From Octopus sinensis (lineage: Eukaryota): 64,000 nt of DNA. Under the pieces are notes generated by a model. It had not been told where the DNA came from. It was given only the letters and a program-made list of their open reading frames with translations, and did no database searches. The stretch is from positions 85,126,001 to 85,190,000 of the forward strand of contig NC_043003.1 of the NCBI RefSeq assembly GCF_006345805.1, given 5' to 3'. This document shows, one piece after another, positions 3,907 through 50,494 of this stretch (position 1 is the stretch's first letter; each line of letters starts with the position of its first letter). A program made the translations under genes and the position numbers.

Positions 3907-3986
3907 GTACAGAAGTGAAAGATTTGCAAACAGTTTTAAATGAAGCATGTTCTGATGATGGGACACTTCTTCACCTTGCTACAATG
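3907..3986 (+). CDS. Exon 1 in window: TEVKDLQTVLNEACSDDGTLLHLATM (start of ankyrin repeat)
   Basis: tttttacaacag acceptor, GTAGGT donor, ends in phase 0. An alternative AG at 3911-3912 is possible but would change the upstream phase. Confidence 0.8.
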
Positions 3987-3989
3987 GTA

Positions 3990-4061
<72 letters not shown>

Positions 4062-7000
4062 GTACATATGCATGTATGGTGTGTGTGCAGTGTCATCTAA
4101 ATGCATGGGTGCAGGGATCTCATGGATCAAGGCAGACCAATTCTGATCTGTTTATGCTGTGGTTTGCTGTCAGTGAATATATACTATAGTGCCCAGGGGC
4201 CTACAATGCTGCCAAGGCAGCTGTGTGTGTGTGTTTAACTATGTATTGATTTTGATTATGTATAACCCACCCGAAATGTTATCAGCTGAAATGTTTTGTT
4301 GTGGAGCAATCCCATGCCAAAGAACTTATTGGGAGTCTATGACTTCTTGTGGGCCAGTGTTTTGCATACTTTATAGATAAGAGTATTTGAAACATGTTGA
4401 CCCGACAGAATAGTTTCAAAGCTTAGATCCTTGATTTTATTTTTTAATATTTATTTCAACCTCTTGGAAATGTATTTCAGAAGTGGATGTGGTGGTTAAA
4501 AAGTTGGCTTCCCAACCACATAGTTTTAGGTTCAGTCCCACTCTGGCACCTTTGGCAAGTGACTTCTACTATGTCTCTAGGCCATCCAAAGATGTGTAAG
4601 TGGATTTGCTAGACAGGAACTGAAAAAAGTCCATGGTTTATGTATCAATGTATGTATGTGTTTGTATGCGTGAATATGTGTATGTTTGCATCTTGTTTTG
4701 ACACTGCATGACAATGAGCAGCACTGTCATACAAGCAGTTTCTGTCATTACTAATATTCTGCATAAACATATCCTGGAGAAATTTTGCCTTGCTTGGAAA
4801 CAATTGAGGGTCGATGACAGGAAGGGCATCCAGCTAGAGAAAATCTACCTCAGATAACTCTGTCTAACTCATGCAAACATAGAAAAGTGAACAGTGATGA
4901 TGATATATATCACAATTAGAGGACAGATTTTCAGTGGGCTACTCACTGTATTTTTGAAAGTGAGAGTTGACAAGAGGGTGTCTGTAAAATGGTTCAGAAC
5001 AAATATCATAGAATTAATATTATAACTTATCTTTAACTTACTGAGTTTGGAAGAAGGGGAGGTGCCCGTGATCTTCACAGGTTCTCCAAGACTAGTGAGC
5101 TTGATGTTGTTTATGTCCCACTTAAACTATTGCAGGTCAACACCTGCTGAAAAGACATGAATAGGAAGATTCCTGAGAGCCAGTGCTTTGGGAGAAAATA
5201 ACTGGACATAGTGGTTAGTGCAGGACTACAGTAGGAGGGTTAGAATTTTGTAGATGAGGTCAGAACAGTACTGGGAGAGTTTTTTTTTTTCTTTTTTGTC
5301 ACGGACAAGTGAATTTTGAAAGAGGGGCCTTGCAAGTCTACCAGATAGATGGAAGAGCATTGAAGAAGATGAAGAATACATTTTAGATTACAAAAAATCT
5401 TTATCTTTGTTTTGAAAAATAAAAGAAATATAAAAAACTGGATTATTTATAGGATGACCCAGTATATATATAAAATAGTGAAGGAACATGACTCAGTGGT
5501 TAGAGCATTGGGCTTACAATGATGAGGGTGTGAGTTCAGTTCCCAATCCAGGCTGTGTGTTGTATTCTTACACAAAGCACCTTATTTCCTGTTACTCCAG
5601 AGGATATGACCAAAAACTGCGTGAACTCCATCCCATGCAGCTGTGGTAGGTTATACAAAGGCGAAACATGTTGCCCCCTCAAAATAAGGGTAGAGGAACA
5701 TTGCAAAGCTGTGACACGAGGAGATATTGATAAATCAGGTATAGCTGATCATGTATGGAAAAATGGAGACCACCTCCCCCTGTGGGATGAAGTTAAAATA
5801 ATTGACAGAGAACACCACTGGAAAATATGAAAACTAAAAGAAGCAGCATATATGCTAGGACACAACATTCTCCTAAGCAGACCGAGTGCAGATATGAATA
5901 GCATATGGGAACCGGTATTAAGGAAGGATAGGAGAATATTAGATTTATAAGCCCCAAAATTCACTCCATAATTGTCCATGGGTATATGGCATAGTGGTTA
6001 AGAGCGCAAGTTATTAGCCCCAAGATTCCAAGTTCGATTCCAGGCAGTGACCTGAATAATAATAATAACAACAACATCGAAAAATACCTTAGGAATGAGA
6101 ACCCAAGTTCAAAATTTCCCCCAAGACACCTGATGAAGGCTGGAGGGTATATCAGCTGAAACATTGTATTAACAGCAGACAACATGAGGATAAATATCCG
6201 TCAAATGTAAATAATGTACATAATTCCACATCTCTTAAATATAGAAAAGAATATATATTACTGATACTTATTGTAGCAGCCCTGGAAGGATGTAAAAACT
6301 CTGAAATATTTAAGGAAATAGCTAAATAAAACCCTTTTCTTTTTTAAAAAAATCGCTTCTGTTTCTGTCAAATTCACAGCCATAACTCACTCTTATAAAT
6401 AATTAGTTTCTTATAACAGGCTTCCTCTTTTCGATTATAGCTGGGAGAGGCTGACATTGTACGCACTTTGCTCTCTGCTGGTGCAGATCCAGGCATACAC
6501 AACAAAAATCAACGAATTCCTCTGGACCTTGCTATGTCAGAAAATGTGAGAATTGTCTTCAATGAAGAACTTCTGCAAGCCACTGCACATTCCAAGTTAG
6601 TTACAATATTCTCACATCTTTGATTTCATTTTCTCTTGTCTAGCAGTAACCATGTGTAAGCTGTGCCAGTGATTCTCAAAGTGTTCCAAACTGCTAAGGT
6701 CCCATAAATGTATCTGTCATCTTTAACCCCATACATCCATCAATCACCTTTATATATTCCATATTGTTTATCATAGAGGTTGGTATTGTATGCACTTTGC
6801 TCTCATCAGTCACAGACATACACTAAAAAAATTAGCAAATTCTTCTGAACTTTGCTCAGTCAAATAAAGTGAAAATCGTCTCCAATGAAGAACTTCTGCA
6901 TGCAACTGAACATCTCTGTAGAAATGATTACATAATAACAGCAATATTATAATTCATTGTAAGGCAGCGAGTTGGCAGAATTGTTACCATGCCAGGTAAA

Positions 7001-10000
7001 ATGCATAGTGGCAATTCATCCACCTTCATGTTCTGAGTTCAAATTCTGCCCAAAGTCATTTTTACCTTTTATCCTTTCGGAGTCAATAAAATAAGTACCA
7101 GCTGAGCACTGGGGTCAATGTGTAATCGACCTACTCCCTCCACTGAAGTTGCTGCCTGGTGTCAAAATTTGAAACCTATATTACAATTTATCGTAACCAA
7201 TGTACTACATGTGAAGAACATATTACAGTAGAAACAGATTAGATAAATCACTTCAAATGATCTGCTAGAAATAGTGACAAAATCTTACTGAACCCTTTAA
7301 CATTTAAACTGGCCTGAGCTGGTCTCTTACACCTACCCCACAATGTCATTCTAAAAATAAACAATCACATCATTGAAATCTCAAAAGCTACAAGATAATA
7401 CCTGATTATTTCAAAACAATAAAAATAGATAGGTATTACAGTTGACAAAGTAATTTGAATGCTAAAGGTTTAAATCACAATCTGCTGCGTTACAAAAGAA
7501 GACCACATTGAATAATGCATTCTTAGGTGGAATATACCTGACTAGGGGAAAGACAGGATGCTTGTGGCTGGAGTGTTTTTGATTATGTGTATGCTGGATC
7601 ACAACTGATCTGGAACTGAACAACACATAATGCTTCGTAATTTTGAGAGTTTCTAAAATTCTGCTGCAAATTTCATTTTGTGGTCCATATTTATCATTAC
7701 ACTATGATTCTAAATGTATTATACCATACCTCCATATGATCAAGTCACCCTTTACCAGCTCTTAATATCTTAGCTTCTTAGACCTCCACTTTCTACTCTT
7801 CATTCTGCTGTCAGCCAATTTTTTTACCCTCAGGGTGTGACACTACCCACTTTGGAAATCACTGGTCAACACACACTTGTTTCATCCCATTTTATTTTGT
7901 TTTAATTTTTTTTAAGCTGTTTTACCATGGCATAAATGAGAAGGGTTTGTTTTCCTACATATGAACATTTACCAACCTTTGTATTGCAGGAGCCAGTATT
8001 TTTATGTAAATTTCATAAGTTTATATAGAATAGTGCTTATGTTTCTTAGTATGAAGCAGATATGAGTCAACTATCACCTGGATAAGATGCCAGTTTATCT
8101 CAAACTGTGTTCTCGTATGATATAGTATTTGTTTCCAATGGTTGGTTGAACTGTTGTATGTAAAACTAGCAGTGTCGCCTGGCGTTGCTCGGGTTTGTAA
8201 GGGAAATAACTATATAAGCATTTTTAGAGAGTTATAGCCAAAAAGTAGCAAAAAAATGCATTAAAAATGGACAAAAAATGATGGTAATTTTTTTTTTTAA
8301 ATCGTTGACTCATCGTAGACATTTTTAGAGAGTTACTTCCCTTATATAATATCGAAAAAAATGCATTAAAATGGAAAAAAATGATGGTAAATTATTTTTA
8401 AAATCGTAGACTCATCGTAGACGCACGCTAATACCCAGAAGGGCTCGATATGAATGACAACTATAAGATTTGGATAAACTGCACCGCAAAATGTGGGAGT
8501 AGTTAGGAATCTAAATCATAGGAGACAGACACACAACCTTACTTTTATATAGAAAGATTACAAATACTGCTCAAATACCAAAAAACAAAAACAGGCTGAA
8601 TACCAAGACAATAGCAGTTGCATCAAAGAAACTGTGAATCAGGAGTATGTGAACCATGAACCATGAATGGAGTAGTACTAACTGGACACAATACAGAGTT
8701 TGATCAACCCTAAATGAGCAGCCCAAGTGAAAGTACCCGATTTTTAAAAGACCTGAAGCACTGATATAGCCATCTGTAAAAGGGAATTAAAACTGTTATG
8801 CTGGTGACTTAATAGCAAGACATATTTATTCTACTACTAATACTAATACTACTACTACTACTACTAATAATAATAATAATAATAATGATAATATTAATAA
8901 TAATAATATTAATAATAATAATAATAATATTAATAATGATAATGATAATAATATTAATATTAATAATAATAATATTAATAATAATAATAATCTTTCAAGC
9001 ACATCTATCTTTTACAGAGGATTCTGCATGAAACTTTTCTTCTTTCTCACAGCATAAAACACATTCCACTGTTTGAACTATTAATATTACTTTCTACTAA
9101 AGCAGGACATAACTAGTTTTGTGGCGGATTCTACTGATTAATGCATGTCTACTTCAGGCAGACTGGACTATAGTGCACTGTGGATAAATGTTACTCCATA
9201 AGATTTCTCTTTGAGAACCAAGCATTTGTTTGATAAAGTTATTCTTCATTGTTATATGTATTGCTAAAAAGGAAAAAAGCTATTTATTCCATCAATTTTA
9301 CAAATGTCAAAATTATCCAAATCATCTGAGTTTTATAATCAGCTCTGAGAAAAATATCAGTTTTTAAATACTTAAGAAAAGCAGTGTTCTTTATTTGACA
9401 AGCCAACAGGCACCGGCAATCAGGACCCCTTGCGCTCTCCTGTCCTGTATACAACTTGGCATATTACTGCATCAGTTATTCTGATTCTAGCTAGTAAGAC
9501 CATTGAGTATCTTCTTTCTCTGTCTTCCCCAACTTCTTCCTTGTAGTTTTTCTGTTGTCTTCAAGTGCTCAAGGTTGTCTCTTCTTATCGGGTTGCCAAT
9601 GAATTGAGCCTGTTGTCACCTTATGTCATTGAGAAGCTTCCTGTGGAACTTTGTTCATCTAAGGCCCTCAATATTTGTCACTCTTTCTGCATAAGACACC
9701 TTCAACATGCCTGCCTTTAAAGAACTAAATCCCTACAACATTGATAGCTTTTCCACTTGTCTGTTGATATTCCAGGTGACACAACTATATGTGGATGGAA
9801 GCACTCCATCGGTTACGATGACGAGGGTTCCGGTTGATCCGATCAACGGAACAGCCTGCTCGTGAAATTAACGTGTAAGTGGCTGAGCACTCCACAGACA
9901 CATGCACCCTTAACGTAGTTCTCGGGGATATTCAGCGTGACACAGAGAGTGACAAGGCCGGCCCTTTGAAATACAGGTACAACAGAAACAGGAAGTAAGA

Positions 10001-10817
10001 ATGAGAGAAAGTTGTGGAGAAAGAGTACAGCAGGGATCACCACCATCCCTGCCGGAGCCTCGTGGAGCTTTAGGTGTTTTCGCTCAATAAACACTCACAA
10101 CGCCCGGTCTGGGAATCGAAACCGCGATCCTATGACCGCGATCCTATGACCGCGAGTTCGCTGCCCTAACCACTGGGCCATTGCGCCTCCACACAACTAT
10201 ATGTAAGAATAGGGTCTATGTATGCCCTTGACATTCTTTTTGCTCACACTTCTTTACAGCTGTGTATATGACAATATATCTTTGATCTCGCCAAAAGCAA
10301 TATTAAAATGAATATTAATATTTTATTTCACTGAGACATTTTAAAGAAAATACCTATTAGCATTGTAATCCTAATTACACTGTTTGATTTTTCTTCAGTA
10401 TGGGGCGTGTATGCCAGCTCTTGGCTTCTGGACTTGATGTAAACCTGAAGGACAGCAGCGAAAGCCAAAACACACCTTTACATTGGGCTTCTTGTTATGC
10501 CTCACGTGACATGGTACAATGTCTCTGCTGTAAGATTTTGCTGATGATAACATACTTATTTTTATTTGCTCTCTTTCTTTCTTTCTCTCTCTCTCTCTTT
10601 TTTTCTCTCTCCTCTCTCTTCCTTCCCCATCTCTCTCTCTCATTCTGTTTTTATGTATCTAGTGAATCCCTCTACTATCTGTCTGTATCTATCACAGTGA
10701 TGACTTCATATGCTTTTTTCTTTTTTACTCTCTCACTGTATTTGTATGCTTGTATCTATCTTAAGTAAATCTCTATTATTAGACTACATATCTAACCCAC
10801 TGACCACTTTATGCTTG

Positions 10818-10884
<67 letters not shown>

Positions 10885-11434
10885 ATGAATGACTCAAAGC
10901 ACTAACTCTTTGCTGTATATCATTTCCCTTCAGTATGCTACTCTTGACTCATTTCCATTATGTAATTTCTAGTGCGTGGTGCTGATGTTAACGCAGTCAA
11001 CATGGATGGTTGCACTCCACTTCATGAGGCTGTCTCAAGAGGGAACATTGAGATTGTGGAAGAACTGCTAATCCATAAAGCTGACCCAACACTAAAGATT
11101 AAAAGAGGGTAAGAACATATCTTATTCAAACATAAAAACTTTCTAAAGTGTAAATAAATTAGTTTTTCAGAAAAATAATTTATTCCTACTTTGTGAACTA
11201 TCTGAATTAATTACACTCTCTTTACTTTTTACTCTTTTACTTGTTTCAGTCATTTGACTGTGGCGATGCTGGAGCACCGCCTTTAGTCGAGCAAATCGAC
11301 CCCAGGACTTATTCTTTGTAAGCCCAGTACTTATTCTATTGGTCTCTTTTGCCGAACCGCTGACGGGGACGTAAACACACCAGCATCAGTTGTCAAGCAA
11401 TGCTAGGGGAACAAACACAGACACACAAACATAT

Positions 11435-11478
<44 letters not shown>

Positions 11479-12439
11479 GACAGGCTTCTTTCAGTTTCCG
11501 TCTACCAAATCCACTCATAAGGCATTGGTCGGCCCGGGGCTATAGCAGAAGACACTTGCCCAAGATGCCACACAGTGGGACTGAACCCGGAACCATGTGG
11601 TTGGTTAGCAAGCTACTTACCACAGCCACTCCTGCACCTATTATGTGTAACATAATTTTTGTCCTTGGGTAGCAACTGTTATTTCCTATTTGATTACCTC
11701 GAGAAATTATGAAAAATGGCTAATATTTCCTTCAAACTTTGCTTTTGTTACATTTATTCAAACCCCAAAGAATCCCTCTTAATACATTGCTGTGATGCTC
11801 CCCCACTACTCCTGCTCATGATCAGAGATGCACATATTGTCAGCCACTAAGACTGACCACATGCTCAAGTGGTTAAGGTTAAGCAACTGACAAGCAAATC
11901 TGTGGTATTGAGCAGAATATTAGCTATAGCAATATTTCTGCTTCAGCAACTCAGTGCTGAATGTCTGAAATGCAATAGAAATAGATTAGTTTCAAAACAT
12001 TGATGTCCTGGTCACAAAAGTAAAGTTTAAAAGGGATAGTAATAGTTTTCTTTGATTTCTAGATAGAAGTGTAAATAGGAAATAACACTTAGTAGCCAAA
12101 GACAAAAAAAAATTTATTTTGTTACAGTGTTATTTGCAGGCAGAGGCTAGCACTAGTTTCTACACATTCTGTTGTGCCACTTATTTAATTGTGTAATTAT
12201 GAAGTTCACATCACAACCATGTGGTTTCAAACATACCCACATACACATACCCACATACAGCCACCCACACACACATATACGTATATTTGCACACAAATTC
12301 ATCCTCATATACACATAGGTATATGCTTACATATATATGAGACATTTATGCATATAAATATACGCATATCTATCTATCTATCTCTCTCTCTATATATATA
12401 TATACACGTCCTCATATTATTATTATTATTATTATTATT

Positions 12440-12486
<47 letters not shown>

Positions 12487-25401: not shown

Positions 25402-25446
<45 letters not shown>

Positions 25447-26085
25447 TATGACGGGCTTCTTTCAGTTTCTGTCTACCAAATCCACTCACAAGGCTTTGGT
25501 CGGCCCGAGGCTACAGTAGAAGACACTTGCCCAAGGTGCCACACAGTGGGACTGAACCTGGAACCATGTGGTTGGTAAGCAAGCTACTTACCACACAACC
25601 ACTCCTACGCCTATTTAACTTATAGTTGGGACCCAGACAGATGCTACTACTCCAAGTCAGAGCAGACTTAGAAACAATAGTGGCTGAGAAGTGGTCACAC
25701 TCCTCAAAACCTTACAACTCCCAAACTAAAGTCCAACTACCAAATGTAGTTTAAAGTCATACCCAGGACAGAATAGTGAAACAAACCCATTCCCAGATTT
25801 GCTACCATTAATGTTTAATTTCATTTTATATAGAAAATCTTAATTCACAGATGCAGTTAATTTATTCTTTGTAAAAAAAAAAAAACCAGCAATATCACAT
25901 ATTATGAAGGGAAGTATTCCAACATGGTCATAGCCACAATGGCTAAAACAAACTAATCAATATATGTAATTGCTCTGAATATAGTCATTATCTTTGCTTA
26001 GATTACAGATTCACCATCGCTGCCTTACAGAGGAGTTCTACTTGATGTATCTAAAGGACGTGTACCTAATATAGTAAGTTTCAAT

Positions 26086-26119
<34 letters not shown>

Positions 26120-33223: not shown

Positions 33224-33259
<36 letters not shown>

Positions 33260-33576: not shown

Positions 33577-33629
<53 letters not shown>

Positions 33630-36600: not shown

Positions 36601-38263
36601 GTTTCAGTCATTAGACTGTGGCCATGCTGGGACTCCACCTTGAGGAAATTTTAGTCTAACTAATTGACACCAAGATTTATATAAAAAATTTTTTTTGTTT
36701 GTTTTTTCCAAACCTGATACTTTGTCATTGGTTGAATTTACCAAGCCGCTAAGTTACATGGACATAAACACACCAACACTGGTTGTCAAGCAGCAGTGGG
36801 GAACAAACACTGGCACAAAGACACACACATATTTTATACAGATTCTCTGTCATTGCCTTTATGTGATTCAACCTCCTGAGATGAGCCTTCACCACATCTC
36901 ATGTCATCTTCAATCTTCTTCTTGAACAAAGCATCACATGATAAGAGATCAAACCAATTGAAATGTTGTATAGATGTAAATATTGCTTTCAAATTTTGGC
37001 ACAAGGCCAGCAATTCCAGGGCAGGGTTAAGTTGATTAGATCAACCCCATTGCTTATTTCATCGACCCCAGGTGCTTATTTCATTGACCCCCAAAAGGAT
37101 GAACGGCAAAGTAGACCTCAAACATAAAGACAGACTAAATGACACTAAACATTTTATTTGATGTGCTAATTATTCTGTCAGCTCACCTCCTTGTACACAT
37201 GCAAATATTGAAAATTATTTCATCTATAAAGCTAATATAAAAATCCCCAAAATTTTAATTGTGTTCCTGTGTAATTTTTACAATATGAAAATTAATTTCT
37301 TCTGGGTAATAAACAACAACAAAAAAAGTAATTGTTTTCTTCTTTCATAGGCCACCTATAATTTTGTGCCCCACTGCAAGCGTCTTTCTGAATATGGGTA
37401 AGTTCTATATTCATATAATTTTACCTTTGTTCTGGCATCTCACAGGTTTGGGATGTCAAAAATTTCTGTGTAAATTAAACACGAATTAGTAATTGTGATC
37501 TGCTTGTGTTCTGTCAACAATGCATTGGTTGGTTCAAATGTCACACCTTGGCTATCTTTTCTCTAGGCACACACATCATAACAGTTTACTACTATTTTAA
37601 CCTTCTACTTAAAGTCTCTCGTTTTCCATTTAGTAATAATTAAACAAGAAATATCAAACACAGCAGTTTTTCTTTTTCTCTATTCACCTAAGGTTACTTT
37701 CATTATTTTTCTTCATTTATATTTAAATAACAAATTTCGTTATTAGCATTGTCATAGCAGTGAAAACTGGGTCTTTTGACTCACTTGTGCCACAATCTTC
37801 ACAATAGCACATACACACACAGAGATAAACATGAATTTGTTTGCATTATTTTATATTCTAGGTGTATCTGATGTTTGTATGCTTGTGTGGGTACTCTGGA
37901 AAAAACAGAATGAATCTGGGGGAAACAGTTAGAGGGGGACTCCATCAAGACCTATGTCCTTGAGTGGGCAGGAACTACTACTAAAATGGAGTTCAGATGC
38001 ATTTGAATGTCCACTTTTCCATGCTTGCATAAATTGGACTTTATTTATATGTGTATATATATATATGTGTGTGTGTGTGTATGTTTGTGTTGAACCATTA
38101 ATCCTGACACATTTTTTCTTCCTCTGTTTTTCTCCTCTCAACCCTTTCTGTCAAAGAGCGTAGGCTCAAATTGTCAAAGACTTCCATTCTTCCCAAGCAG
38201 CCAACTAATACACCAGCTTGGTGTTTCCTCACCAGTTTTCATCTTTTGTTTTCTGTAAATTCA

Positions 38264-38315
<52 letters not shown>

Positions 38316-41300: not shown

Positions 41301-43455
41301 GCGTTAGGAAGGGCATCCAGCCGTAGAAACACTGCCAGATCAGACTGGGCCTGGTGCAGCCTTCTGGCTTCCCAGACCCCAGTTGAACCGTCCAACCATG
41401 CTAGCATGGAAAGTGGACGCTAAATGATGATGATGATGATGATGATGATGTCTGCTGTTTCCATGGTGGCATGAGTTGCGCAAGAGTTATTGGTTTTCTA
41501 GGTTAGATGGAAACTGAGAAAGTCTATCATATATGTGTATGTGTGTTAGTATTGTGTTTATCCACTATTTCACAGCTAGTGTTGGTTTATTTATGTTCCT
41601 GTAACTTAGCTGATCAGCAAAAAGTGAGACATACCAGGCTTTAAAAAATAAGTACTGGTGGAGTGGCAGGGGGTTATTTATCTGACTAAACCCTTCAAGA
41701 TAGTGAGATAGTGCCTCAATATAGCTGTAGTTCAGTGACTGACACAAGTATAAGGTAAAAGATATACAATGGGCTTCCATACAGTTTCCATCTGTGTTAC
41801 AAGCTCCATGTTAGAAGTAGAGCCTGTGAGATAACATGCTGTTGAATGCATGATGTTGGCAACATTTATGTTTACAATTAAATTTACTTACCGTAAATCC
41901 TTGAGTATAGTCCGCCCTTGAGTATAATACGCAGGGGATTTTTAGTGGGGCTGTACCTCTGAAAATCCTAAACTTTGTATATAATACACACCCCTTCTCT
42001 AACTTGAGTCGTGCTTAATTAAGCCAGCAGCACCAAGTCGAACAAACACTTCCGTGCATGCGTAATACAATAATGGTGATGTTCTTAACTGTTATATGGG
42101 AATGTAAATATGTTTGCAAATTGTTTTTGTTACATGTTATTCTGTGTTCTGAATACTTTTATTTTAATAAATGTTGCTTACTGCAAGTTATGGATGATTC
42201 TTTTATGACTTCATTGCTTTCAGGCTTAGCTTAAGGTATTTTCCCGCCCGACATCACAAAATGCATTTAAATAAATATTGCTGGACAGCAAATAGAGACT
42301 CGGACATTACTTAGAAAATATTTTTCATTTTTAACCTCGTATATAGTACAAACTAGGGATTTTGACCTTTAAATTTTGGGAAAGAAATGCGGATTATACT
42401 CGAGGATTTACAGTACATCATTAGTCATTTGCAATATATTTGTCTACCTTCCAAAGGTTGCAGATTGTTGTTTAGCCTTTGGTTGGCTTTGTTCATGCAA
42501 ACTTAACAATCAAAGATGTTCCAAACATGATTTTGCATATTCAGGATTATCTTATTCAGTGTACCTTTTCTATTATTGAGACAGTACTGTGTGATTTGAG
42601 AGATATTTGACTGTTATCTTTAGCAGGTCAAGGAACTATCTATTGGCTCAATTATAGTTAGCTGTTTAACAGGAATCCATTAAATAAATTAGGCAATTAG
42701 AGTTTATGTTTCTTCCATAAGAACACAACATACTGGCTATAGTAATAAATCATACATTGATGATCATAGCACCCAGTTGTCCAGCATTTTAAAACTCTTA
42801 ACCATTGTAATGTAGGGTCAAAATGGGGAGGGATCCTTAGCTTCTGTCTAAATATAATGATAATTCTATCAGATCTCATTCTTATTTCAGGAGTTTCTTC
42901 AGAGCAATCTGGCAGACCTTATGAACAAACATATATTTCGTGATGATTCTTCTGTTTTTGGACAAGTTATCATTGAGTTGGGAAGAATTGAGACCTACGT
43001 CTATCGATGTTCCCAAAAGAAACAAGGTAGGAAGCTAGTTCCTGTCAAAGATAATGGTGTGTGATTTTTAGTTCCTGTTTTGTTGATGCTATTAAATTCT
43101 ATTATTGAAACAAAAATATTTTATGGTGACCACAAGTGACAAATGAGTATTAATTTCTTATTCCCTGCATGGAAAGGAAAATCATCATTATAATGTCTTG
43201 ATGTGTTGTCAACACACTGTTTTCATCAATACAGTATCACCAATTGTATTAAGTTTATTACATTTCTTTTTTGCTTTTGTTATTTGTCTGCTGCTGCTGT
43301 TCTTGAAAATTGTTTGGTAGTTTTATTTCTGATTCTAATACTCCTAATTATTCCCTTTTTTCTTTTTCTTTTTTCTTCTTTTTTGTGCAACAGGTTTGTT
43401 AGAGCTTTGACAAAGAACTACTTGTGGTGTATAGTAGTTTTATGTAAGGGTAGTC

Positions 43456-43499
<44 letters not shown>

Positions 43500-46400
43500 T
43501 ACTAGGATATCTGAATTTACTTTACAAAGTTTTCATACTGAAAAAATTTTTTATTTTACTAAGATATTGAAAACAACAAATCTTGCTTGTTTTTTTTTTC
43601 TTTACAACTTCAGCAGTCCCCAAAAATTTTATTTGGCCTAGTTTCTGCTTTTTTTCCAATGTATCCCAAAGAGAAATATCACTGCTCTCTCCTTAAGCAT
43701 AGGAGTGGCTGTGTGGTTGCTTAACAACCACATGGTTCCGGGTTCAGTCCCACTGCGTGGCACCTTGGGCAAGTGTCTTCTACTTTAGCCTCAGGTTGAC
43801 CAAAGCCTTGTGAGTGGATTTGGTAGACGGAAACTGAAAGAAGCCCGTCGTATATTATATATATGTGTGTGTGTATATGTTTGTGTGTCTGTGTTTGTCT
43901 CCCTAACATCACTTGACAACTGATGCTGGTGTGTTTACATTGCCGTAACTTAGTGGTTCGGCAAAAGAGACCGATAGAATAAGTACTAGGCTTACAAAGA
44001 ATAAGTCCTGTGGTCGATTTGCTCGACTAAAGGCAGTGCTCCAGCATGGCCATAGTCAAATGACTGAAACAAGTAAAAAGAGTTATGTACAATTATTCAA
44101 CTGTATCCCACTCCACTGCTCCTTTTTTATGCTTACTATATGCTCTTTTGATGACCTTTATCTCCTCTTTTTTAGATGATGACCAAACCTCTCTTCCTTG
44201 TGAAAATGGGTCCACTCTTACTAATTTCCTTGTGCGACCTGATGAAACAAGATTAGAAGACTTAACAGCAGATATTCTACAGGTAAGGGATTAGTTCAAC
44301 ATTTCAGTCTTTTTATGCTGTCCTGTGGCATCAGCAACCTTTATATTATCTCAAGTCCTTACCCCTCTGACTCATGTATATAGGTACATACAGTACTCGT
44401 CCTTCCTTGATATTCTCACATACCGGTATACCCAGACACTAACATATTGATAGTGCTGTACTCAGAAATCACAAACCTACATACATATCCATTTCCTTCC
44501 CCCATAACTACCATGAAGTCTGTATGATAGCAAACAGAACTTTTCCTGTCTATTTCTTGATAAAGAGCCTCTGCTTGAAACACCGTTAGAGTTCCTTTCC
44601 TCATTGCAACAGCATTTAATTTTAGTTATTACCACATTTCCTTTGTATTACTTGTTGCCAACACAGACCCATATCAGATTCCTGTGATTTTAGATTTTAC
44701 ATTCAGTCTTTATGTATTGCTGTCATCATATATAGTCTTTATCAAATCTATTTTAATTGACCTATGGCATAACAAAATCTGAAATAAGCTAAATAAAGCA
44801 TACGATGAACACTTCTTGCTGCGGCTGTCCTGTCTAAGAAATAATGTTGCTTTAGTTATCTATGTACAATACCTAATAGATTTTGATGTTTATATACAAG
44901 CACAGACATGGTTCTGTGGTTTAGAAGTTCACTGCTCTACCATATTGTTCCTGGTTTGATCCAGTGCATGACTTGATCAAGTCATCATGAAGCAATAGTC
45001 TGTCTTCAGGTGCCCTTCTTCACATAACACTACTGAATGGGATATTTTGTTAATGAGGGATGTAACCTAATATCGCTGTGCCCACATGGTGACAATGTGA
45101 AGACAATAACAACATACAGGAAGTTTGCTTCCCAGCCATGTGATATGGGGTTCAATCCCATTGCAGGGTGCATTGAGCAAACACACTCTACTTTAACTCC
45201 AATGTCAACCAAAGCCTTGTGAGTGAATTTGGTACATCAAAACTGAAAAAAAAACTCTTTTTATTTTTTTTCTTGTTTCCGTCATTAGACTGTGACCATG
45301 CTGGGACACCAGCTTGAAGAATTTTAGCCTTCTATTGTTGTCAACCAAAGCCTTGTGTGGTTGGAAAGCAAACATCTTACCATACAATCATGCCTGCACC
45401 TATATAATTGTTCACATTTTCCCTTTTAAATAAATAGACGTGCTTCAGCATATACAAGATTATGTTTCAATTTCTTTGTCCACTAATTGTATTCAGTTAT
45501 CCACTTCTATGTATGTTATATATAGACAAATACACACACATATAATAAGTTTTGTGTCTCTTAATTCAAAACTGTTTCAGTACTATAATACAATTTGTTT
45601 TCTGTTATCTAATTGAAGCGAGCCAACCGCCTTCTACGGAAGCACCAGTCTGATGTAACAAGCATCCAGTTGAATTGTCCACAATCAAAGGAAATCATCT
45701 CTGAGGTGCTTCTCACAACAGACATGATGATCCTGGCAGTACGGCAAGTATCATAACAGTTCATAATTTAAGAAATGTGTCTGAGTATACTCGTCTGGTT
45801 CTAAAAAGATACATTTGCGATGCACAAATAAACTCGGGATAATCCATTAAGGGGTTAACAAATAATGATTGTAATAAATCAATGTAAGATCTGTATGTGG
45901 CCATCTGACATGCTAGAAATAGTAACCAAATATTCCTTAAATTGTATCCTACCAATAGTTTCATTATGAATCATAGCAGAATCTACATACAGAGGTCACA
46001 TCAGATTAGATTAATTTTGTCATGATAGTTTGATAGCTTAAATCAAAATCATTATCATCATCATTGTTTTATGAACAGTTTCCATGCTGGTATGGGTTGG
46101 AGATGTAACAATCTGAGTCCTTTTATAACAAAAGCTACTACTCTCAGAGTGGTGTCCATACATGTCATTTTAGCTTACCTTCTAAGGCTAAGTACCTTTC
46201 CTGTCGCCAACCACTTTAGAGAGTTCACTGGATGCATTTTCTTGTGACACCAGCACTAAAGAGGTTAGTAAGTTCTCAGCAAGATAGAACTTAATGGGTC
46301 TATAATCCTGCACTTCCTTTACGTATTTGTTTCCCCATTTTACAGTGTGTACTGGGTGCATTTTTAGTGGTACCAGTACTAAGGAGATTGTCAAGTTCTT

Positions 46401-49400
46401 GATGAGACAAGGTTAAAGGGACCTCTTAATCTTTAAGGTAGTACATTACCTCTGCTCCCTTACCAGTCATTCTACAGAGTGTGCAAGGGAGCTTGGAGGA
46501 AGCACTTTCCATCAAAGTCTCAACATACAGGGTGTGGAAGATATGGTGGCAGCACAGATCCACCACCATCACCTTATTGTAGTGTCTATTAATGCCTAGC
46601 AGTTGTTGCAGATTTTTTCTCCTTTTCTTTCTTGTTATCATTCCTTTTACATAGATAAGTTGAATTTGAGAGGTTTTTACTTATTTTACTTTTTATTGAC
46701 AAAATAAGCTACAAAATAGAAACTGAAATATGATACTAACGTTCTTGAAACTTAAACGAAGTTCATCTGCATTAATTTCACCTTGTTATCTTTATCTACC
46801 TATCTAAAACATTTGTGAGCACTTGCCCCCCACCCACCCCCACACACACACACACTCTTCTCTTCTCAGACTATCTGATAAATGAAAATATGGTGGCAAA
46901 TATTAGGGAGAAATGCAAAGTCAGCTCTGGCAGTATTTGAACTGATAAGGAGGGTTTACTATGGCAATTGTTCTACTACCTTTAATATCCTCAATTTCCT
47001 TTGATGGGCTTATCTCTGTTTACATTGCTTTCTTGTGCCTTGTATTATCATTATGTTTAAGGTGGCAAGCTAGTAGAATCGTTAGCAAGCAGGGAGAAAT
47101 GTTTAGCAGCATTTCGTCTGTCTTCACATTCTGAGTTTAAATTCTGCTGAGCTCAGCTTAGCCTTTCATCCTTTCAGGGTTGATAAAATAAGTACCAGTT
47201 GAGGACTGGAGTTGATGTAATCGACTCCCCCCCCACCCCAAAATTGCTAGCCTTGTGCCAAAATTTGAAATCATCATTATTATTATTATGTTTTTGTTTC
47301 ATAATGTTTTAATCAAAAGAAAAGAAATTATGCTCAATGTCTGTTAGTGGCTTTCTGAATCTGGTGACACTGTCAGAGTTGATGTGCATTTTGAACATCT
47401 GCATGTAAACATCTGTAGGAAAAAAATCATGTGAAAGAACTTCCAGAAGGTTGATGTTCTGAAAAGTAAGAAGTAGGGAGAAGTAATAAGTCCAGGACCT
47501 GATAGGAAAGGGGGAAATGCACACTAATGTAGTGTGACAAGAGAAAGAGTGGTACAACTGGTATACATGTAGCTAATTTTCAGGGTAGCTGAATTTAGCA
47601 CAGCAGTGATAAAATAGACACAGACAGAGCAAATCAGCTTATCTGTTGAGCCAGAGGTTGTACAATGAATGAGTAAGAATCAATTGGAAAACCTTTTGGA
47701 AGCTTTTTGTGTATGGGAGCAGTATCCCCCCACCCCAGCATGGTTCTTCCTAATTCAACTACTTATAATTGTTGAAAGCTGGTGATTGCTTCCCAAACAG
47801 CAATTAGTTACACATTCTATAGTTTGTAGAAGTACCTTCATGAATGTGACACTGAAATATCACACATTGGTCTCATTTTTCAAATTCGCTGTAGAAATTT
47901 TGTTTTGTTTTTAGGTAGCATACATAATTTTAAAAAAACTTCAGTTAGCCTAATTATTACCAGCATTATACAGCAGATTGTTTGTCAGTATTCATCATCA
48001 TCATCATCATCATCATTTAGCGTCCGTTTTCCATGCTTGCATGGGTTGGACGGTTCAACTGGGGTCTGTGAAGCTGGAAGGCCGCATCAGGCCCAGTCAG
48101 ATCTGGCAGTGTTTCTACAACTGGATGCCCTTCCTAACGCCAACCACTCCATGAGTGTAGTGGGTGCTTTTTACGTGCCAGCCGAAATAAACATGTTTTC
48201 TATTTAGTGGGAGATTTATCTCTCATCCACTTAACACCTTGAAACTAGAGCTAAGCTTCAGCAATTATGAACCTAGTACTGTTGGCATGGCTGTGTGTTA
48301 AGAAGTTTTCTTCCCAGCCACAAGGTTCCAGGTTCAGGCCCATTATGTAGCACATTGGGTAAGTGTCTTCTACTATAGTCCAGGCCAACCAAAGTCTTGT
48401 GAGTGGATTTAATAGAGAGAAACTGAAATAAGGCCATTGTATGTGTGTGTAACATATGTGTGGTGCGTGATACAGTGTCATTGCTTTGACATTACATGAT
48501 AGTTGTAAATAAGTGTCACTGGAATACAAGTGCTGCCCTTCATTTCTAATATTCTGTTTAAACATGTCTGGTCATGGGAAAAAATTTTACCTTGGAATCA
48601 GGTGACAGTTGGCAACAGGAAGGGTATCCAATTGTTGAAAATCTGCCCTGACAAATTCTGTTCAATCCATGTGAAAATGGAACAGTGGATTTTAAAATGA
48701 TGTGCCGGTGGCACGTAAATTGCACCAATCCGACCGTGTCCATTGCCAGCCTCGCCTGGCACCTGTGCGGGTGGCACGTAAAAAGCACCCACTACACTCA
48801 CGGAGTGGTTGGCGTTAGGAAGGGCATCCAGCTGTAGAAACATTGCCAGATAAGACTGGAGCCTGGTGCAGCCTTCTGGCTTCCCAGATCCCCGGTTGAA
48901 CCATCCAACCCATGCTAGCATGGAGAACGGACGTTAAATGATGATGATGATGACACCACTAATGACAATGACAACAAAAACAAGTACTGTACTGTGTTAC
49001 ATAATGTTTTCATCTGTTGTTTTATATTGGGCTAATATATTTATCTTGTACTATAACACATTTCCTGCTTGTCATTGTTAATTTCTGTTTCTCAAAACAT
49101 AACAGGATTGGACGTGCTATGGTGACTGCTGGTCGCAACCCTGATCCCTTATCTGGCCTGCGTATAGTAAATCTTGGAATCACAAACTTGACTGCTACTG
49201 GAAAAACAGATCTTGCTAACAGGTTTTTACATGTTTTTATGTACTATTTTGTTGTAGAGAATAAGGAGCCCCTATTCCATAAATTTTAAGAGTTGTACTC
49301 AACTGGCATAATTGTTAGAGCAAGAGATAATATATCTTATCATGTTTAGGTTCTGGGTTCATATCCTACTGATGTTAACTTTGCTTTCATCTTACTGGGA

Positions 49401-50494
49401 TTGATAAAATAAATTATTAGTTAAGTTCTGGGGTCTCCAAAATTTGTGGCCTTATGCTAATATAAGAAATTGCCATTTCTTGGCTTGAATTGAAGAAGAT
49501 TGGTCTAATTACTTTGCAAGTAGTTAGCCACATGTCCTTACATTCTGAGTTCAGACCCTACAGAAGTGGATTCAGTTATAGCCCAGTGTTGATCAAATAA
49601 GTACCAGTAATAATACTGGATTCAACTCAGCTGAATATATCTCTCCTACAAATGGTGTGACTTTGTCCAAATGTAAGAAATTATTGTTGCTGTTCAACCC
49701 CAAGTTTCTAATTTATTAAAGGAAACTTGTGTGAAAGCCCATTGGAGGGATGGTTTCTATTTCTGAGTGGTAGACTTAACCTGTAACCAGCTTTAATATG
49801 GATATTTGGTCCTTAAGTGTAAACATTTGGGCAAGTTTCTGATCTGAAAATAATTTTATGTTTTCTTCTCTTCCTCCCAATTTTTTTGGAGCCTTTAAGT
49901 GGGTATCATAACCTCTGCCTTTCTTCCTCTGATTAAGTCAAAAAAATTTTTTGGAACAATAGGCAGAAAATTATCTCAGAGAGCATGATATTGCTGATGA
50001 ACACACTAACCCTTTTGTTACCAAATTCCTTTTGAAATGTGCTACTTTTGTTTTAATTAATTTTGGAAATAATTAAGATTTTAGTAAAACAACTTTGTCA
50101 TTATGAATCTGGCTTTTAGAACATAAATTAACATAAAAGTTTGATGAAAGGTTTTAATTTTGATCACTTTCAAACAGGAAGTTTATATTGTAGGACCAAG
50201 GCCAGTTTCAGGCAGGTTGGTACCAAAAGGGCCAAAAACTTTTCTGAGTCTAGAGACCTTATCTATAAAATCTTCATCATGGGAATCTTTCCAGTAAGGA
50301 ACAGTATTATGCCTCTCAATTTCCTTTATCTTTGCAGACTTCTGGAGCTGATTGAGAACTTTCGTGTGAGTTGGAAACGAAGATATATTGCAAAATTAGG
50401 TTTACTGGAAGCCACAAATTGCTTACAGAATGTGCTGACGCAATTAGTACCAAATGAAGATGCAGAGAAATTTTCTTCTTCTATTATAGGGTAA
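3907..50494 (+). CDS. Spliced gene (21 exons in window, 5'-incomplete): ankyrin-repeat + GH20 hexosaminidase-like protein, probably catalytically inactive
   Basis: Exons assembled by hand with AG acceptors and GT donors (one GC). Phases match at all 20 introns and give one open frame of 2687 nt ending in TAA at 50492-50494. Ankyrin motifs (GTLLHLA, NTPLHWA, CTPLHEA, GADVN) precede GH20 motifs (LLWPRPQ, ITDSPSLPYRGVLLDVS, MKFNQIHLY, FVCPGTAAWNS, GLAWN). Confidence 0.92.
5593..6245 (+). mobile_element. Penelope-like element 3' fragment: GIY-YIG endonuclease remnant, tRNA-like segment and hammerhead-like motif
   Basis: NCVNSIPCSCGRLYKGETCCPLKIRVEEH...SGIADHVW...KLKEA matches the Penelope GIY-YIG pattern VYxIPCxCGxxYIGET..LxxRxxEH; internal TGA stop. 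Confidence 0.85.
6126..6169 (+). ncRNA. Degenerate minimal hammerhead motif
   Basis: ACAC-CTGATGA-A-GGCTG-(10 nt)-CAGCT-GAAA-CA-TT-GTAT. The core is intact; stem I and the stem III palindrome each carry a mismatch. Confidence 0.55.
6441..6595 (+). CDS. Exon 2: LGEADIVRTLLSAGADPGIHNKNQRIPLDLAMSENVRIVFNEELLQATAHS (ankyrin)
   Basis: ttttcgattatag / GTTAGT; phase 0 to 2; completes the ankyrin repeat begun in exon 1. Confidence 0.92.
6667..7864. mobile_element. Possible old hAT-like non-autonomous element
   Basis: 17-bp TIRs CAGTGATTCTCAAAGTG / CACTTTGGAAATCACTG (15/17 match); no recognisable TSD. Confidence 0.5.
6776..6916 (+). pseudogene. Decayed duplicate of exon 2 (pseudo-exon)
   Basis: gaggttggtattgtatgcactttgctctc...aatgaagaacttctgcatgcaactgaacat aligns along exon 6441-6595. 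It has an in-frame TAA and small deletions. Confidence 0.85.
8166..8557 (-). mobile_element. Non-autonomous Helitron
   Basis: The minus strand starts A|TCTTTCTATATAAAAG and ends with the hairpin CCCGAGCAACGCCAGG then CTAG|T; inserted between A and T with no TSD. Confidence 0.85.
9400..10330 (-). mobile_element. Decayed RTE-clade LINE 3' fragment (split by SINE A)
   Basis: Minus strand MLKVSYAERVTNIEGLR...RKLLNDIR*QQAQFIGNPIRRDNLEHLKTTEKLQG resembles the RTE C-terminus. Confidence 0.7.
9793..10190 (-). mobile_element. tRNA-derived SINE family A with 14-bp TSD
   Basis: TSD ACACAACTATATGT at 9779-9792 and 10191-10204; interrupts an RTE fragment. Confidence 0.92.
10399..10529 (+). CDS. Exon 3: NMGRVCQLLASGLDVNLKDSSESQNTPLHWASCYASRDMVQCLC (ankyrin)
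   Basis: ttttcttcag / GTAAGA; phase 2 to 1; TPLH motif. Confidence 0.95.
10973..11108 (+). CDS. Exon 4: [46 protein letters not shown] (ankyrin)
   Basis: atttctag / GTAAGA; phase 1 to 2; canonical ankyrin consensus. Confidence 0.95.
11229..11640 (-). mobile_element. tRNA-derived SINE family B (CORE-like motif, central TA/TG microsatellite)
   Basis: Head ggcgcaggagtggctgtgtggtaag...gggttcagtccc followed by (A/T)CCTTGGGCAAGT, which resembles the CORE-SINE motif; possibly octopus OR2 (unverified). Other copies at ~226-608(-), 25199-25612(-), 29915-30305(+), 40275-40688(-), 43697-44082(+). Confidence 0.85.
13462..13574 (+). CDS. Exon 5: DNIGKSALDLADRSAILLSLLQNPPTKHSKKQFQDIL (terminal half ankyrin)
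   Basis: ttccttacag / GTAAGT; phase 2 to 1. Confidence 0.9.
15585..15745 (+). CDS. Exon 6: Ser/Pro-rich linker TEDFALSESVIQNS...PPASSGSKIQELSSQV
   Basis: Long pyrimidine tract + CAG / GTAAGT; phase 1 to 0; open frame. Confidence 0.85.
17552..17711 (+). CDS. Exon 7: KELECLPMFSKTVVTEEQLSLLWPRPQSIVQKEGNHFVPDEVLHIYLSTMSDI (start of GH20 domain 2)
   Basis: cttcctacag / GTAAGT; phase 0 to 1; LWPxPQ motif typical of the hexosaminidase N-terminal domain. Confidence 0.9.
18388..18572 (+). CDS. Exon 8: SIHSVAQVWNCRKFMF...VEKASYKIIIQSFQ (GH20 domain 2)
   Basis: tttttaaacag / GTAAAC; phase 1 to 0; SYKIII resembles the E-x-Y-x-L-x-I strand. Confidence 0.88.
19520..23155 (-). mobile_element. Decayed R4/Dong-clade non-LTR retrotransposon (N-terminus + RT), interrupted by SINE D and its array at ~19943-20970
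   Basis: MKWTREDY..., PPKWK, LKAQKLRR..KFYQQNKIF, WIDYRKAYDIVPHNW, IFQGDSLSPLLFC, INHLFYMDDLKLFA, HPKANVDHLYLPRSNGGRG; many stops and frameshifts. Confidence 0.88.
20112..20843. repeat. Tandem array of twelve 60-63-bp GC-rich units inside a family-D element
   Basis: Units start at GTGCTTTTACGT: 20112, 20175, 20235, 20296, 20358, 20418, 20479, 20540, 20601, 20662, 20722, 20783. Confidence 0.95.
23698..23808 (+). CDS. Exon 9: VKILAHDIQSLSYAIITLSQLFNLYKTESGISIPLLE
   Basis: cttttgtag / GTAAGT; phase 0 to 0; matches the GxxYAxxTLxQL helix of GH20 domain 2. Confidence 0.92.
25199..25612 (-). mobile_element. SINE family B, full length
   Basis: Colinear with 11229-11640. Confidence 0.88.
26002..26073 (+). 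CDS. Exon 10: ITDSPSLPYRGVLLDVSKGRVPNI (GH20 barrel strand 1)
   Basis: ctttgcttag / GTAAGT; IxDxPxxxYRGxxLDxS signature. Confidence 0.95.
26200..27150 (+). mobile_element. Internally deleted Tx1/L1-like LINE remnant
   Basis: ORF1 zinc knuckle RRPHCFICGETTHL*AFCP, then RT start DNFRPITLLNTEFKILA...HDNLYFMQYIIE, then C-terminal DNFQKSLAWQC. Confidence 0.7.
27343..27393 (+). CDS. Exon 11: ETLKNMLDNIAYMKFNQ
   Basis: tctgttacag / GTACTA; 51 nt, phase 0 to 0; GH20 lDxxAxxKxN motif. Confidence 0.92.
27955..28372 (-). mobile_element. Possible Helitron-type non-autonomous fragment
   Basis: The minus strand starts ATCTATATATAC and has an internal aataactactggtccgattt motif; no 3' CTAG end seen. Confidence 0.35.
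28737..28801 (+). CDS. Exon 12: IHLYTRFRYQTSSAWQLCYSC
   Basis: ttctcttcag / GTATGT; phase 0 to 2. Confidence 0.88.
29915..30305 (+). mobile_element. SINE family B nested in an older family-A-like copy (~29870-30490, minus)
   Basis: Family-A-like sequence stops at ~29915 and resumes at ~30306. Confidence 0.8.
30597..30743 (+). CDS. Exon 13: SELLEIDKFCMDRGMQLIPAVDVHPSVQFEDLPFLQCVFYDYISHFTNS
   Basis: cctattgcag / GTAAGT; phase 2 to 2; matches the GH20 EIxxxxxYxxxRGIxxIP pattern. Confidence 0.92.
31602..32100. mobile_element. hAT (Charlie-like) MITE with nested SINE D
   Basis: CAGTGGTTCTCAGCC ... GGTTGAGAACC ends; body similar to 40093-40722. Confidence 0.7.
33632..35979 (-). mobile_element. 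Tc1/mariner DD37D (maT) transposon, decayed, interrupted by a CR1-like LINE
   Basis: TA-flanked imperfect TIRs CAGGGTACGGTGAATAAACTGTCA / TGACAATTTACCCATCGCACCCTG. Motifs FSDEKNF, WQQDSEPCH and WPPSSPDCNPLDYYVW, with 37 residues counted between the 2nd and 3rd Asp; frameshifted. Confidence 0.92.
33892..34938 (+). mobile_element. 5'-truncated CR1/Jockey-group LINE (RT C-half), (TAAC)n tail
   Basis: SGVPQGSVLGPLLFLVFINDL, LFADD, LERVQRLATR, RRRRGDLI, WNKLP; open frame; TSD ACAAGTA at 33885-33891 and 34939-34945. Confidence 0.95.
36070..36271 (+). CDS. Exon 14: DFINVGSRLTSFLLEYP...QRLPPHLMFGEYGTQ (contains the position of the GH20 catalytic motif)
   Basis: catctacag / GTAAGA; phase 2 to 0. Confidence 0.9.
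37351..37397 (+). CDS. Exon 15: ATYNFVPHCKRLSEYG
   Basis: ttctttcatag / GTAAGT; 47 nt, phase 0 to 2; needed to keep the frame. Confidence 0.88.
38406..38634 (+). CDS. Exon 16: FGFFVCPGTAAWNSLAGFPEAAVANIFNAAK...WPGFVITAGLAWNKDIHW
   Basis: gattttag / GTAAGT; phase 2 to 0; last barrel strands. Confidence 0.95.
40093..40722. mobile_element. hAT (Charlie-like) MITE with nested SINE B
   Basis: TIRs CAGTGGTTCTCAAC / GTTAAAAACCACTG; 8-bp TSD ATGTAGAT / ATCTAGAT (NTCTAGAN-type target). Confidence 0.85.
41140..41449 (+). mobile_element. SINE-like family D (gtgccggtggcacgtaaaaagcac...ggaagggcatccagc...(GAT)n tail)
   Basis: Near-identical copies at 1-42 (tail only), 19943-20850(-), 23400-23668, 31735-31993(-), 47993-48180(-), 48701-48952, 56893-57199. 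Confidence 0.85.
41891..42413. mobile_element. Tc2/pogo-like MITE
   Basis: TA-flanked ~25-bp TIRs CCGTAAATCCTTGAGTATAGTCCGC / GCGGATTATACTCGAGGATTTACAG; no ORF. Confidence 0.85.
42891..43026 (+). CDS. Exon 17: EFLQSNLADLMNKHIFRDDSSVFGQVIIELGRIETYVYRCSQKKQ
   Basis: cttatttcag / GTAGGA; phase 0 to 1. Confidence 0.9.
43697..44082 (+). mobile_element. SINE family B, full length
   Basis: Reverse complement of the 11229 and 25199 copies. Confidence 0.88.
44176..44282 (+). CDS. Exon 18: DDDQTSLPCENGSTLTNFLVRPDETRLEDLTADILQ
   Basis: cttttttttag / GTAAGG; phase 1 to 0. Confidence 0.9.
45619..45743 (+). CDS. Exon 19: RANRLLRKHQSDVTSIQLNCPQSKEIISEVLLTTDMMILAVR (GC donor)
   Basis: aattgaag acceptor; donor CG|GCAAGT gives the phase 2 that the next exon requires. 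Confidence 0.82.
49106..49222 (+). CDS. Exon 20: IGRAMVTAGRNPDPLSGLRIVNLGITNLTATGKTDLANR
   Basis: cataacag / AG|GTTTTT; phase 2 to 2. Confidence 0.85.
50338..50494 (+). CDS. Exon 21 (last coding): LLELIENFRVSWKRRYIAKLGLLEATNCLQNVLTQLVPNEDAEKFSSSIIG*
   Basis: tatctttgcag acceptor, phase 2 start, TAA at 50492-50494. Confidence 0.9.

Follow-up and report, generated by a model that had tools for sequence, protein, structure and literature searches.

We have found that a gene of Octopus sinensis encodes a protein in which ankyrin repeats are joined to a GH20 hexosaminidase-type fold, and that this protein belongs to a family whose animal members appear to be GH20 pseudoenzymes, a case for which we found no published GH20 example in the literature searched. 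The fusion is older than animals, with intact members in choanoflagellates, and the ankyrin-GH20 family looks like a third eukaryotic GH20 lineage; published GH20 phylogenies recognise, in their available text, two eukaryotic lineages or acquisitions (PMC11308363, PMC2492878). The original prediction, made from the DNA alone, had described an ankyrin-GH20 fusion with an intracellular adaptor role, a role that we likewise infer. To it the present analysis adds, partly by observation and partly by inference, the loss of the catalytic residues, the affinity to GcnA and to bacterial proteins, and a fusion older than animals.

The window, that is, the whole stretch of 64,000 nucleotides that was analysed, consists of AT-rich eukaryotic DNA with many repeats. 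A frame of 69 residues (38428-38634) showed a 100% match to P0001, which is isoform X1 of O. sinensis LOC115214018 (XP_029638897.1, 926 aa). When mapped back onto the window this protein fell into 21 exon blocks, and a splice-aware search with AG/GT or GC borders yielded one 21-exon chain on the + strand (3907-50494), whose translation reproduces residues 33-926 of P0001 plus the stop letter for letter; the two alternative chains begin further on and are distinguished from it by the first acceptor alone. The missing 5' exon that was to be sought lies 7.4 kb upstream of the window, as a separate exon at 85118597 that encodes residues 1-32 and has an in-frame stop directly ahead of its ATG. With the 21 exons of the window and this upstream exon, the gene therefore has 22 coding exons (Table 1). 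A query with exon 16 gave a single match in the 2.7 Gb genome. The spliced frame proposed at the outset, with ankyrin repeats, linker, GH20 part and helical tail in 21 exons, is thus borne out by the exact match to P0001, by Pfam and by the structural model.

Table 1. Coding exons of the ankyrin-GH20 gene and other features of the window (window coordinates)
Feature	Position	Strand	Content and evidence
Exon 1 in window (coding exon 2)	3907-3986	+	Residues 33-58, ankyrin region; in a run X13 contig
Exon 2	6441-6595	+	Residues 59-110, ankyrin; splice chain and RNA contigs
Exon 3	10399-10529	+	Residues 110-154, ankyrin; 131 nt; absent from annotated isoform X3
Exon 4	10973-11108	+	Residues 154-199, ankyrin; splice chain and RNA contigs
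Exon 5	13462-13574	+	Residues 199-237, final ankyrin helices and start of linker; RNA contigs, model
Exon 6	15585-15745	+	Residues 237-290, disordered linker; RNA contigs, model
Exon 7	17552-17711	+	Residues 291-344, start of GH20 domain 2 (LWPxP motif); RNA contigs, Pfam
Exon 8	18388-18572	+	Residues 344-405, GH20 domain 2; splice chain and RNA contigs
Exon 9	23698-23808	+	Residues 406-442, GH20 domain 2; splice chain
Exon 10	26002-26073	+	Residues 443-466, barrel strand 1; K460 in place of the substrate Arg
Exon 11	27343-27393	+	Residues 467-483, barrel; splice chain
Exon 12	28737-28801	+	Residues 484-505, barrel strand 2; splice chain, model
Exon 13	30597-30743	+	Residues 505-554, strand 3 and shortened strand 3-4 loop
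Exon 14	36070-36271	+	Residues 554-621, strands 4-6; R561-L562 (36089-36094) at the catalytic Asp-Glu position of intact relatives
Exon 15	37351-37397	+	Residues 622-637, barrel; splice chain
Exon 16	38406-38634	+	Residues 637-713, strands 7-8; pocket Trp649 and Trp683 kept
Exon 17	42891-43026	+	Residues 714-759, helical domain; splice chain, model
Exon 18	44176-44282	+	Residues 759-794, helical domain; splice chain
Exon 19	45619-45743	+	Residues 795-836, helical domain; GC donor next
Exon 20	49106-49222	+	Residues 836-875; fusion-specific TDLAN motif at 49206-49220
Exon 21, coding part	50338-50494	+	Residues 875-926 and TAA stop; splice chain
Intron 19 donor	45743-45749		GC donor (GCAAGT)
Open frame	5534-5827	+	GIY-YIG-like endonuclease remnant by eye; no Pfam match
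Tandem repeat, intron 8	20117-20844		61-bp GC-rich unit, 12 copies
Open frame	22023-23164	-	Non-LTR retroelement remnant-like by eye; no Pfam match
Reverse-transcriptase frame, intron 13	33865-34845	+	LINE-like element; RVT_1, E 1.5e-14
Broken frames	34935-35816	-	Tc1/mariner-type transposase-like by eye; in Pfam only sub-cut-off DUF7769
Two-copy piece	41145-41264		Related to the 61-bp repeat of intron 8

Four sequencing runs from four studies (X1, X3, X6 and X13) were aligned to positions 3800-19800 of the window. Their RNA nature was a guess and only spliced joins were counted as evidence; the contigs contain intron-free joins, which show processed RNA. Exons 4-8 are joined end to end in record 3 of run X1 and exons 2-8 lie in one contig each in runs X3 (record 10) and X6 (record 11), and run X13 has exons 1-4 and exons 7-8 in two separate listed contigs. 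In this way, ankyrin, linker and GH20 exons are joined without introns in three of the four runs, the listed joints 11108/13462, 15745/17552 and 17711/18388 being GT..AG. Record 3 of run X1 extends 3916 nt past exon 8, where 1566 nt of coding sequence are left, which is compatible with the 3' exons. A single transcript across exons 5-6-7, as first proposed, is therefore found within these contigs, which cover exons 2-8, and the opposite case, ankyrin and GH20 exons in separate transcripts, is contradicted by them. The gene is real, expressed and conserved. Relative to the window, the contigs carry a silent C>T at 10459 in all four runs and a T>G at 17637 (Ile to Ser) in run X13 only.

Several isoforms affect the ankyrin part. 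The annotated isoform X3 of O. sinensis skips exon 3 and begins its reading frame within exon 2, with the out-of-frame ATG at 6562, and the cuttlefish contigs P0059 and P0061 present the same N-terminal pattern as this skip. An annotated isoform of O. vulgaris drops exons 3-4 and the annotated shrimp isoform X2 has no ankyrin repeats at all. The skipping of exon 3 may be a conserved regulatory event. The contigs of run X1 break on both sides of exon 3, with a depth of 28 versus 37-47.

Regarding the domains, Pfam recognised in the whole protein three Ank stretches (E 1e-23), and under its cut-off Glyco_hydro_20b at residues 312-445 (E 1.4e-4) and, at 450-486, the first part of Glyco_hydro_20 (E 6.5e-4); both GH20 cut-offs are passed by the intact orthologues. 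These are the domains (Ank, GH20 domain 2 and barrel) that the original prediction had expected from the spliced exons. An ankyrin-poor profile compared with solved structures gave GH20 matches down to E 7e-14, HEXA being matched over domain 2 and the first barrel strands with E about 1e-7. The AlphaFold2 model, built on 23 sequences (pLDDT 81, pTM 0.65), has ankyrin-type helix pairs at 1-225, disorder at 228-303, a mixed domain up to about 446, eight barrel strands within 451-682 and, as far as 915, long helices, an order that agrees with Pfam and with the exon-to-domain map proposed from the DNA. In Foldseek and VIA-align, streptococcal GcnA/GH20C was the best match or among the best (Z 21.6-22.4), with 482-504 residues aligned at rmsd 3.4-4.1 over octopus residues 331-917, and DARPins matched residues 93-224 with Z about 21. 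Its tandem helix-turn-helix repeats make this an ankyrin-repeat protein, and the domain 2 and eight-stranded barrel of the model point to a GH20 fold and ancestry.

Pfam searches of single exons matched only the ankyrin exon (one of the eight gene-exon frames among 10 queries) and the locus was not among the 31 matches of a genome search with PF00728, so that the GH20 part is easily missed. When the whole protein was compared with solved structures by phmmer, only ankyrin matches were present among the 60 matches listed, and NCBIfam gave only ankyrin and domain-2 matches under the cut-off. As for its location, no signal peptide or membrane segment stands out in the octopus protein in a simple hydrophobicity scan (N-terminal value 0.56), and a hydrophobic N-terminal 12-mer (2.0 or more) was present in only 1 of the 73 fused proteins. 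On the basis of this simple scan a cytosolic location is predicted, in line with the intracellular protein originally envisaged.

A word search with the octopus protein gave 23 matches in molluscs, an annelid, amphioxus and shrimp, every one of which has ankyrin domains. A nemertean match came in addition. A profile without the ankyrin positions, searched against 1.84 billion representatives, gave 569 matches at E 1e-30 or better, and among the best 150 of these, which were examined, 41 have an ankyrin score over 40 and 86 carry the bacterial-type strand-1 motif (DISRxKVP-type). Among the 26 proteins identified by name, none comes from vertebrates or Drosophila. Named fused members include Salpingoeca kvevrii, Monosiga brevicollis, Barroeca, Diaphanoeca, Sycon, Oscarella, Pocillopora/Stylophora, Gordionus, Loa, Pediculus, Strongylocentrotus and Antedon. 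The phyletic range of the architecture, whose mapping had been proposed, extends in this profile search from choanoflagellates to bilaterians; 73 aligned proteins, whose sources run from choanoflagellates to amphioxus, have the same architecture, and the cuttlefish and coral members come from assembled contigs of 3-5 kb. All these data show one orthologous family in choanoflagellates, sponges, corals, nematodes, arthropods, lophotrochozoans, echinoderms and amphioxus. The Ptychodera model (663 aa) has no ankyrin part.

In nematodes a separate query recovered 64 relatives, among them C. elegans P0283, presumably the product of T16G1.9, which is labelled EIF3k and has no PF10075 domain. This domain is carried by 13 of the 64 nematode models, often named eIF3k (P0257, P0258, P0260, P0262, P0265, P0273, P0281, P0284, P0291, P0304, P0305, P0308 and P0313), and these joins are probably due to a conserved neighbour merged by gene predictors. 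Outside the fused group, an intact member without the fusion occurs in the slime mould Ceratiomyxa, and DNA patterns derived from unfused relatives located such relatives at 598 bacterial genome loci, many of them in Chloroflexota; with patterns derived from animals none of the 29 stretches found was a bacterial relative. The unfused bacterial GH20 subgroup has an ESM Atlas score of 0.96, and judging by sequence the closest relatives without the fusion come from bacteria. Several conventional GH20 loci exist elsewhere in the octopus genome. No intact paralogue was seen in it, because an intact unfused query found this locus best and, elsewhere, only two weaker matches to domain 2.

A quick tree (IQ-TREE, LG+C20) was built on 49 rows, 21 eukaryotic and 28 unfused, without nematodes and most long branches; the trees are unrooted and include no HEXD sequence. 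The fused holozoans lie on one side of a branch (98, starred) and comprise choanoflagellates (95, starred), animals (100, starred) and, among these, bilaterians (100, starred), so that the tree follows the species tree. All 20 fused rows lie on one side of a branch with an SH-aLRT of 94, unstarred. One of them, P0102, is a 1001-residue ankyrin-GH20 fusion from a EukProt eukaryote, with a fully intact pocket and with the N-terminal RTDIV-type and C-terminal DxAN-type motifs of the family. Its placement is unsure, because IQ-TREE puts it between the fused holozoans and the unfused rows (94) and FastTree nests it among unfused proteins. A position outside the choanoflagellate-animal group would push the origin of the fusion deeper.

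The pocket of GH20C is formed, according to the available text of PMC11308363, by R94, D222, E223, W266, W306, Y308, W339, W373 and D375, which by motif order correspond to R437, D581, E582, W625, W649, Y651, W680, W714 and D716 of the Salpingoeca protein P0099. The pocket was compared, by alignment only, in 74 fused and 85 unfused proteins, the group of 41 other (non-nematode) animals being set by tree position. The Arg, the strand-2 Glu, the His and the catalytic Asp and Glu are present in 85/85 unfused proteins and in all four intact fusions (three from choanoflagellates and one from a EukProt eukaryote), whose catalytic Asp-Glu and substrate pocket are preserved. Among the 41 other animals Arg and Asp are each found once and His and Glu never, and the 24 nematodes have none of the four; the catalytic Glu is absent from all 68 animal or presumed-animal sequences, including two sponges and the coral. 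The Asp-Glu site reads Gly-Glu in Diaphanoeca, Asp-Gln in Sycon, Asp-Leu in the coral and Arg-Leu (R561-L562) in the octopus, and decay also shows in a choanoflagellate branch, that of the Diaphanoeca-type sequence.

The octopus protein keeps two of the nine pocket residues, W649 and W683; its -1 subsite reads K460, S594, Y618, T620 and G685, with only W683 (and W649) retained. The strand-7 and strand-8 Trp are kept in 35/41 and 37/41 of the other animals and in 0/24 nematodes each, and the strand-6 Trp is mostly Tyr (35/41 other animals). At the position of the strand-2 Glu a new Arg (R489) is present in 53/65 animals and in 0/85 unfused proteins, and D457, conserved in 62/65 animals and 85/85 unfused proteins, looks structural. 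The loop between strands 3 and 4 has a median of 69 residues in unfused proteins, 35 in other animals and 33 in nematodes, about 35 residues of this pocket loop being gone in bilaterians; it has 68 residues in the coral and 36 in the Monosiga model, perhaps due to a missing exon in the latter. By this alignment, the octopus protein has neither the catalytic Asp-Glu nor the -1 subsite of active-type GH20 enzymes. An enzyme fold without conserved catalytic residues, as it seems to present, is what the available text of PMC10211241 defines as a pseudoenzyme, and activity has probably been lost in animals. The same text also describes that pseudoenzymes can relocate catalytic residues, and, according to the available text of PMC11308363, the active HEX-2 of Trichuris tolerates Lys in place of the Arg, which is also what octopus has (K460).

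Outside the pocket, the ankyrin region is the best conserved over the 73 fused proteins, with 32 of 225 columns at 85% or more, compared with 0 of 76 in the linker. The helical domain is conserved to the same degree as the barrel, the mean top-letter share being 0.44 in the barrel and 0.42-0.51 in the flanking domains. A TDLAN-type motif occurs in 0/85 unfused proteins and in 32/41, 23/24, 4/5 and 3/4 members of the fused groups, and E747, T870, D871 and N874 are each conserved in 63-64 of the 65 animals and in 2-12 of the 85 unfused proteins. This fusion-specific conservation of E747 and TDLAN marks the helical domain as a putative binding surface that came with the fusion. Its counterpart in GcnA, domain III, mediates dimerisation according to the available text of PMC4449183.

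The explanation that we consider rather probable is that the 926-residue protein would be a catalytically dead cytosolic scaffold, whose ankyrin repeats would bind one partner and whose barrel and helical domain would bind another or itself. Its ancestor could have been an active cytosolic N-acetylhexosaminidase steered to its substrate by the ankyrin repeats; the pocket would then have decayed on the animal stem, partially in sponges and corals and further in bilaterians, with the fold kept for binding and the conserved surface shifting to the helical domain (E747, TDLAN), and in isoforms lacking ankyrin repeats the two ends of the protein would no longer be coupled. However, the two pocket Trp retained in most non-nematode animals could serve ligand binding as well as folding. 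They are, together with the new strand-2 Arg and the frequent Tyr on strand 6, what speaks for a protein that does no catalysis and whose remodelled pocket binds a sugar or a sugar-modified protein (for example O-GlcNAc or free oligosaccharides), the ankyrin repeats relaying the signal. Chitinase-like lectins are a precedent for sugar binding after the loss of catalysis, although lectins derived from dead glycosidases usually retain the pocket and lose only the acid, which counts against such a function here. As the hydrogen-bonding contacts to HexNAc (Arg, His, Asp, Tyr and the strand-8 Asp) are lost, and nematodes have neither Trp and yet retain the gene, we regard sugar reading as unlikely.

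It is quite improbable that the protein is still an enzyme, with relocated catalytic residues or a new chemistry on a non-standard substrate. The complete barrel seen in the model and fold match, the conserved polar residues D457 and R489 and the name beta-N-acetylhexosaminidase, given by UniRef to some members by automatic transfer, would favour it, but no animal-specific invariant acid is present at the barrel strand ends, D457 being equally conserved in unfused proteins, and the barrel is not conserved above the flanking domains. We give even less credit to the idea that function resides in the ankyrin part, with the GH20 module serving only as a folding spacer or an oligomerisation unit like domain III of GcnA: the dimer formed through that domain (PMC4449183, available text) and the ankyrin region being the most conserved part agree with it, but about 620 residues with fusion-specific motifs are retained in all sampled animal phyla, and annotated isoforms without all or most ankyrin repeats exist (shrimp X2, octopus X3). 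Finally, the likely false eIF3k joins of the nematode models demonstrate that gene-prediction artefacts from two adjacent genes occur, but for the ankyrin-GH20 fusion this origin is scarcely conceivable, and is refuted for exons 2-8, as single spliced contigs from different studies bridge both halves and the 73 aligned proteins, with the cuttlefish and coral contigs among them, share the architecture.

A bolder reading, which we consider less probable than not, sees in the family a third and overlooked eukaryotic GH20 lineage of bacterial affinity. In choanoflagellates the protein would be an active cytosolic hexosaminidase that the ankyrin repeats direct to its target and that might, independently of OGA, take single GlcNAc residues off proteins; at the origin of animals it would have become a catalytically dead signalling scaffold or glycan reader, retained in almost every invertebrate phylum and perhaps lost from vertebrates. 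Intact choanoflagellate, half-decayed sponge and coral, and remodelled bilaterian members provide an unusually clear series for testing how an enzyme becomes a binding protein at the origin of animals, and the existence of the C. elegans orthologue P0283 makes genetics possible at once.

No study of the ankyrin-GH20 family was found in full-text literature searches, which leave supplements and most subscription papers outside, and no characterised orthologue appeared in the literature searched; the original prediction too could name none. The word ankyrin occurs 0 times in the main text of the GH20 phylogenies PMC11308363 and PMC2492878. A literature search on T16G1.9 gave no paper, and of three matches from a looser search the one checked concerned another gene; a locus-tag search gave one unrelated match; in an octopus mucus paper, ankyrin and GH20 appear in separate table rows only. 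The architecture is not new to databases: the nematode entry P0300 takes its name from these domains, and a cluster of 114 members, called 'hypothetical protein', exists in the ESM Atlas. The labels tankyrase, EIF3k and beta-N-acetylhexosaminidase given to members are probably wrong; for tankyrase, which combines long ankyrin arrays with SAM and PARP domains, Pfam found no SAM or PARP family in 8 + 8 proteins and the likeness is confined to the ankyrin part.

Among known systems, the best structural match is streptococcal GcnA/GH20C (PDB 2EPK, 5AC5), which shares the order domain 2, barrel and helical domain III with the octopus protein at 10-11% identity; unlike the latter it has no ankyrin repeats and is active, with Asp-Glu where the octopus protein has Arg-Leu. 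The nearest sequence relatives are a bacterial GH20 subgroup of 600-700 residues (Chloroflexota, Acidobacteriota, Planctomycetota and others), with an intact pocket, some signal-peptide-like ends, and neither ankyrin repeats nor TDLAN. GH20 subfamily 1 or clade B (human HEXD, C. elegans HEX-2 to HEX-5, Trichuris HEX-2) is active and ankyrin-less, unlike the octopus protein; the available text of PMC11308363 relates it to GH20C and describes HEXD as nucleocytoplasmic. A HEXD-type motif was found in none of the best 150 of 569 matches. Clade B is reported as absent from Monosiga in the available text of PMC2492878, whereas the ankyrin-GH20 family is present there. These are indirect signs against a place in subfamily 1, and so is the best match of an intact unfused query, which lies at this locus. 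HEXA/HEXB and insect FDL (subfamily 2) are secretory and active, have neither a large helical domain nor ankyrin repeats and are a much weaker match; the signal peptide or anchor that takes this subfamily into the secretory route was not found in the octopus protein by the simple scan (hydrophobicity 0.56, with an in-frame stop before the ATG). On these structural and sequence comparisons, the GH20 part is closer to GcnA/GH20C and the bacterial subgroup than to HEXA/HEXB or FDL. A glycosidase fold has also been kept after loss of the catalytic acid in GH18 chitinase-like lectins and Klotho domains. However, they belong to other GH families and are extracellular or luminal, whereas the octopus protein is predicted to be cytosolic, is fused to ankyrin repeats and has most of its pocket residues gone.
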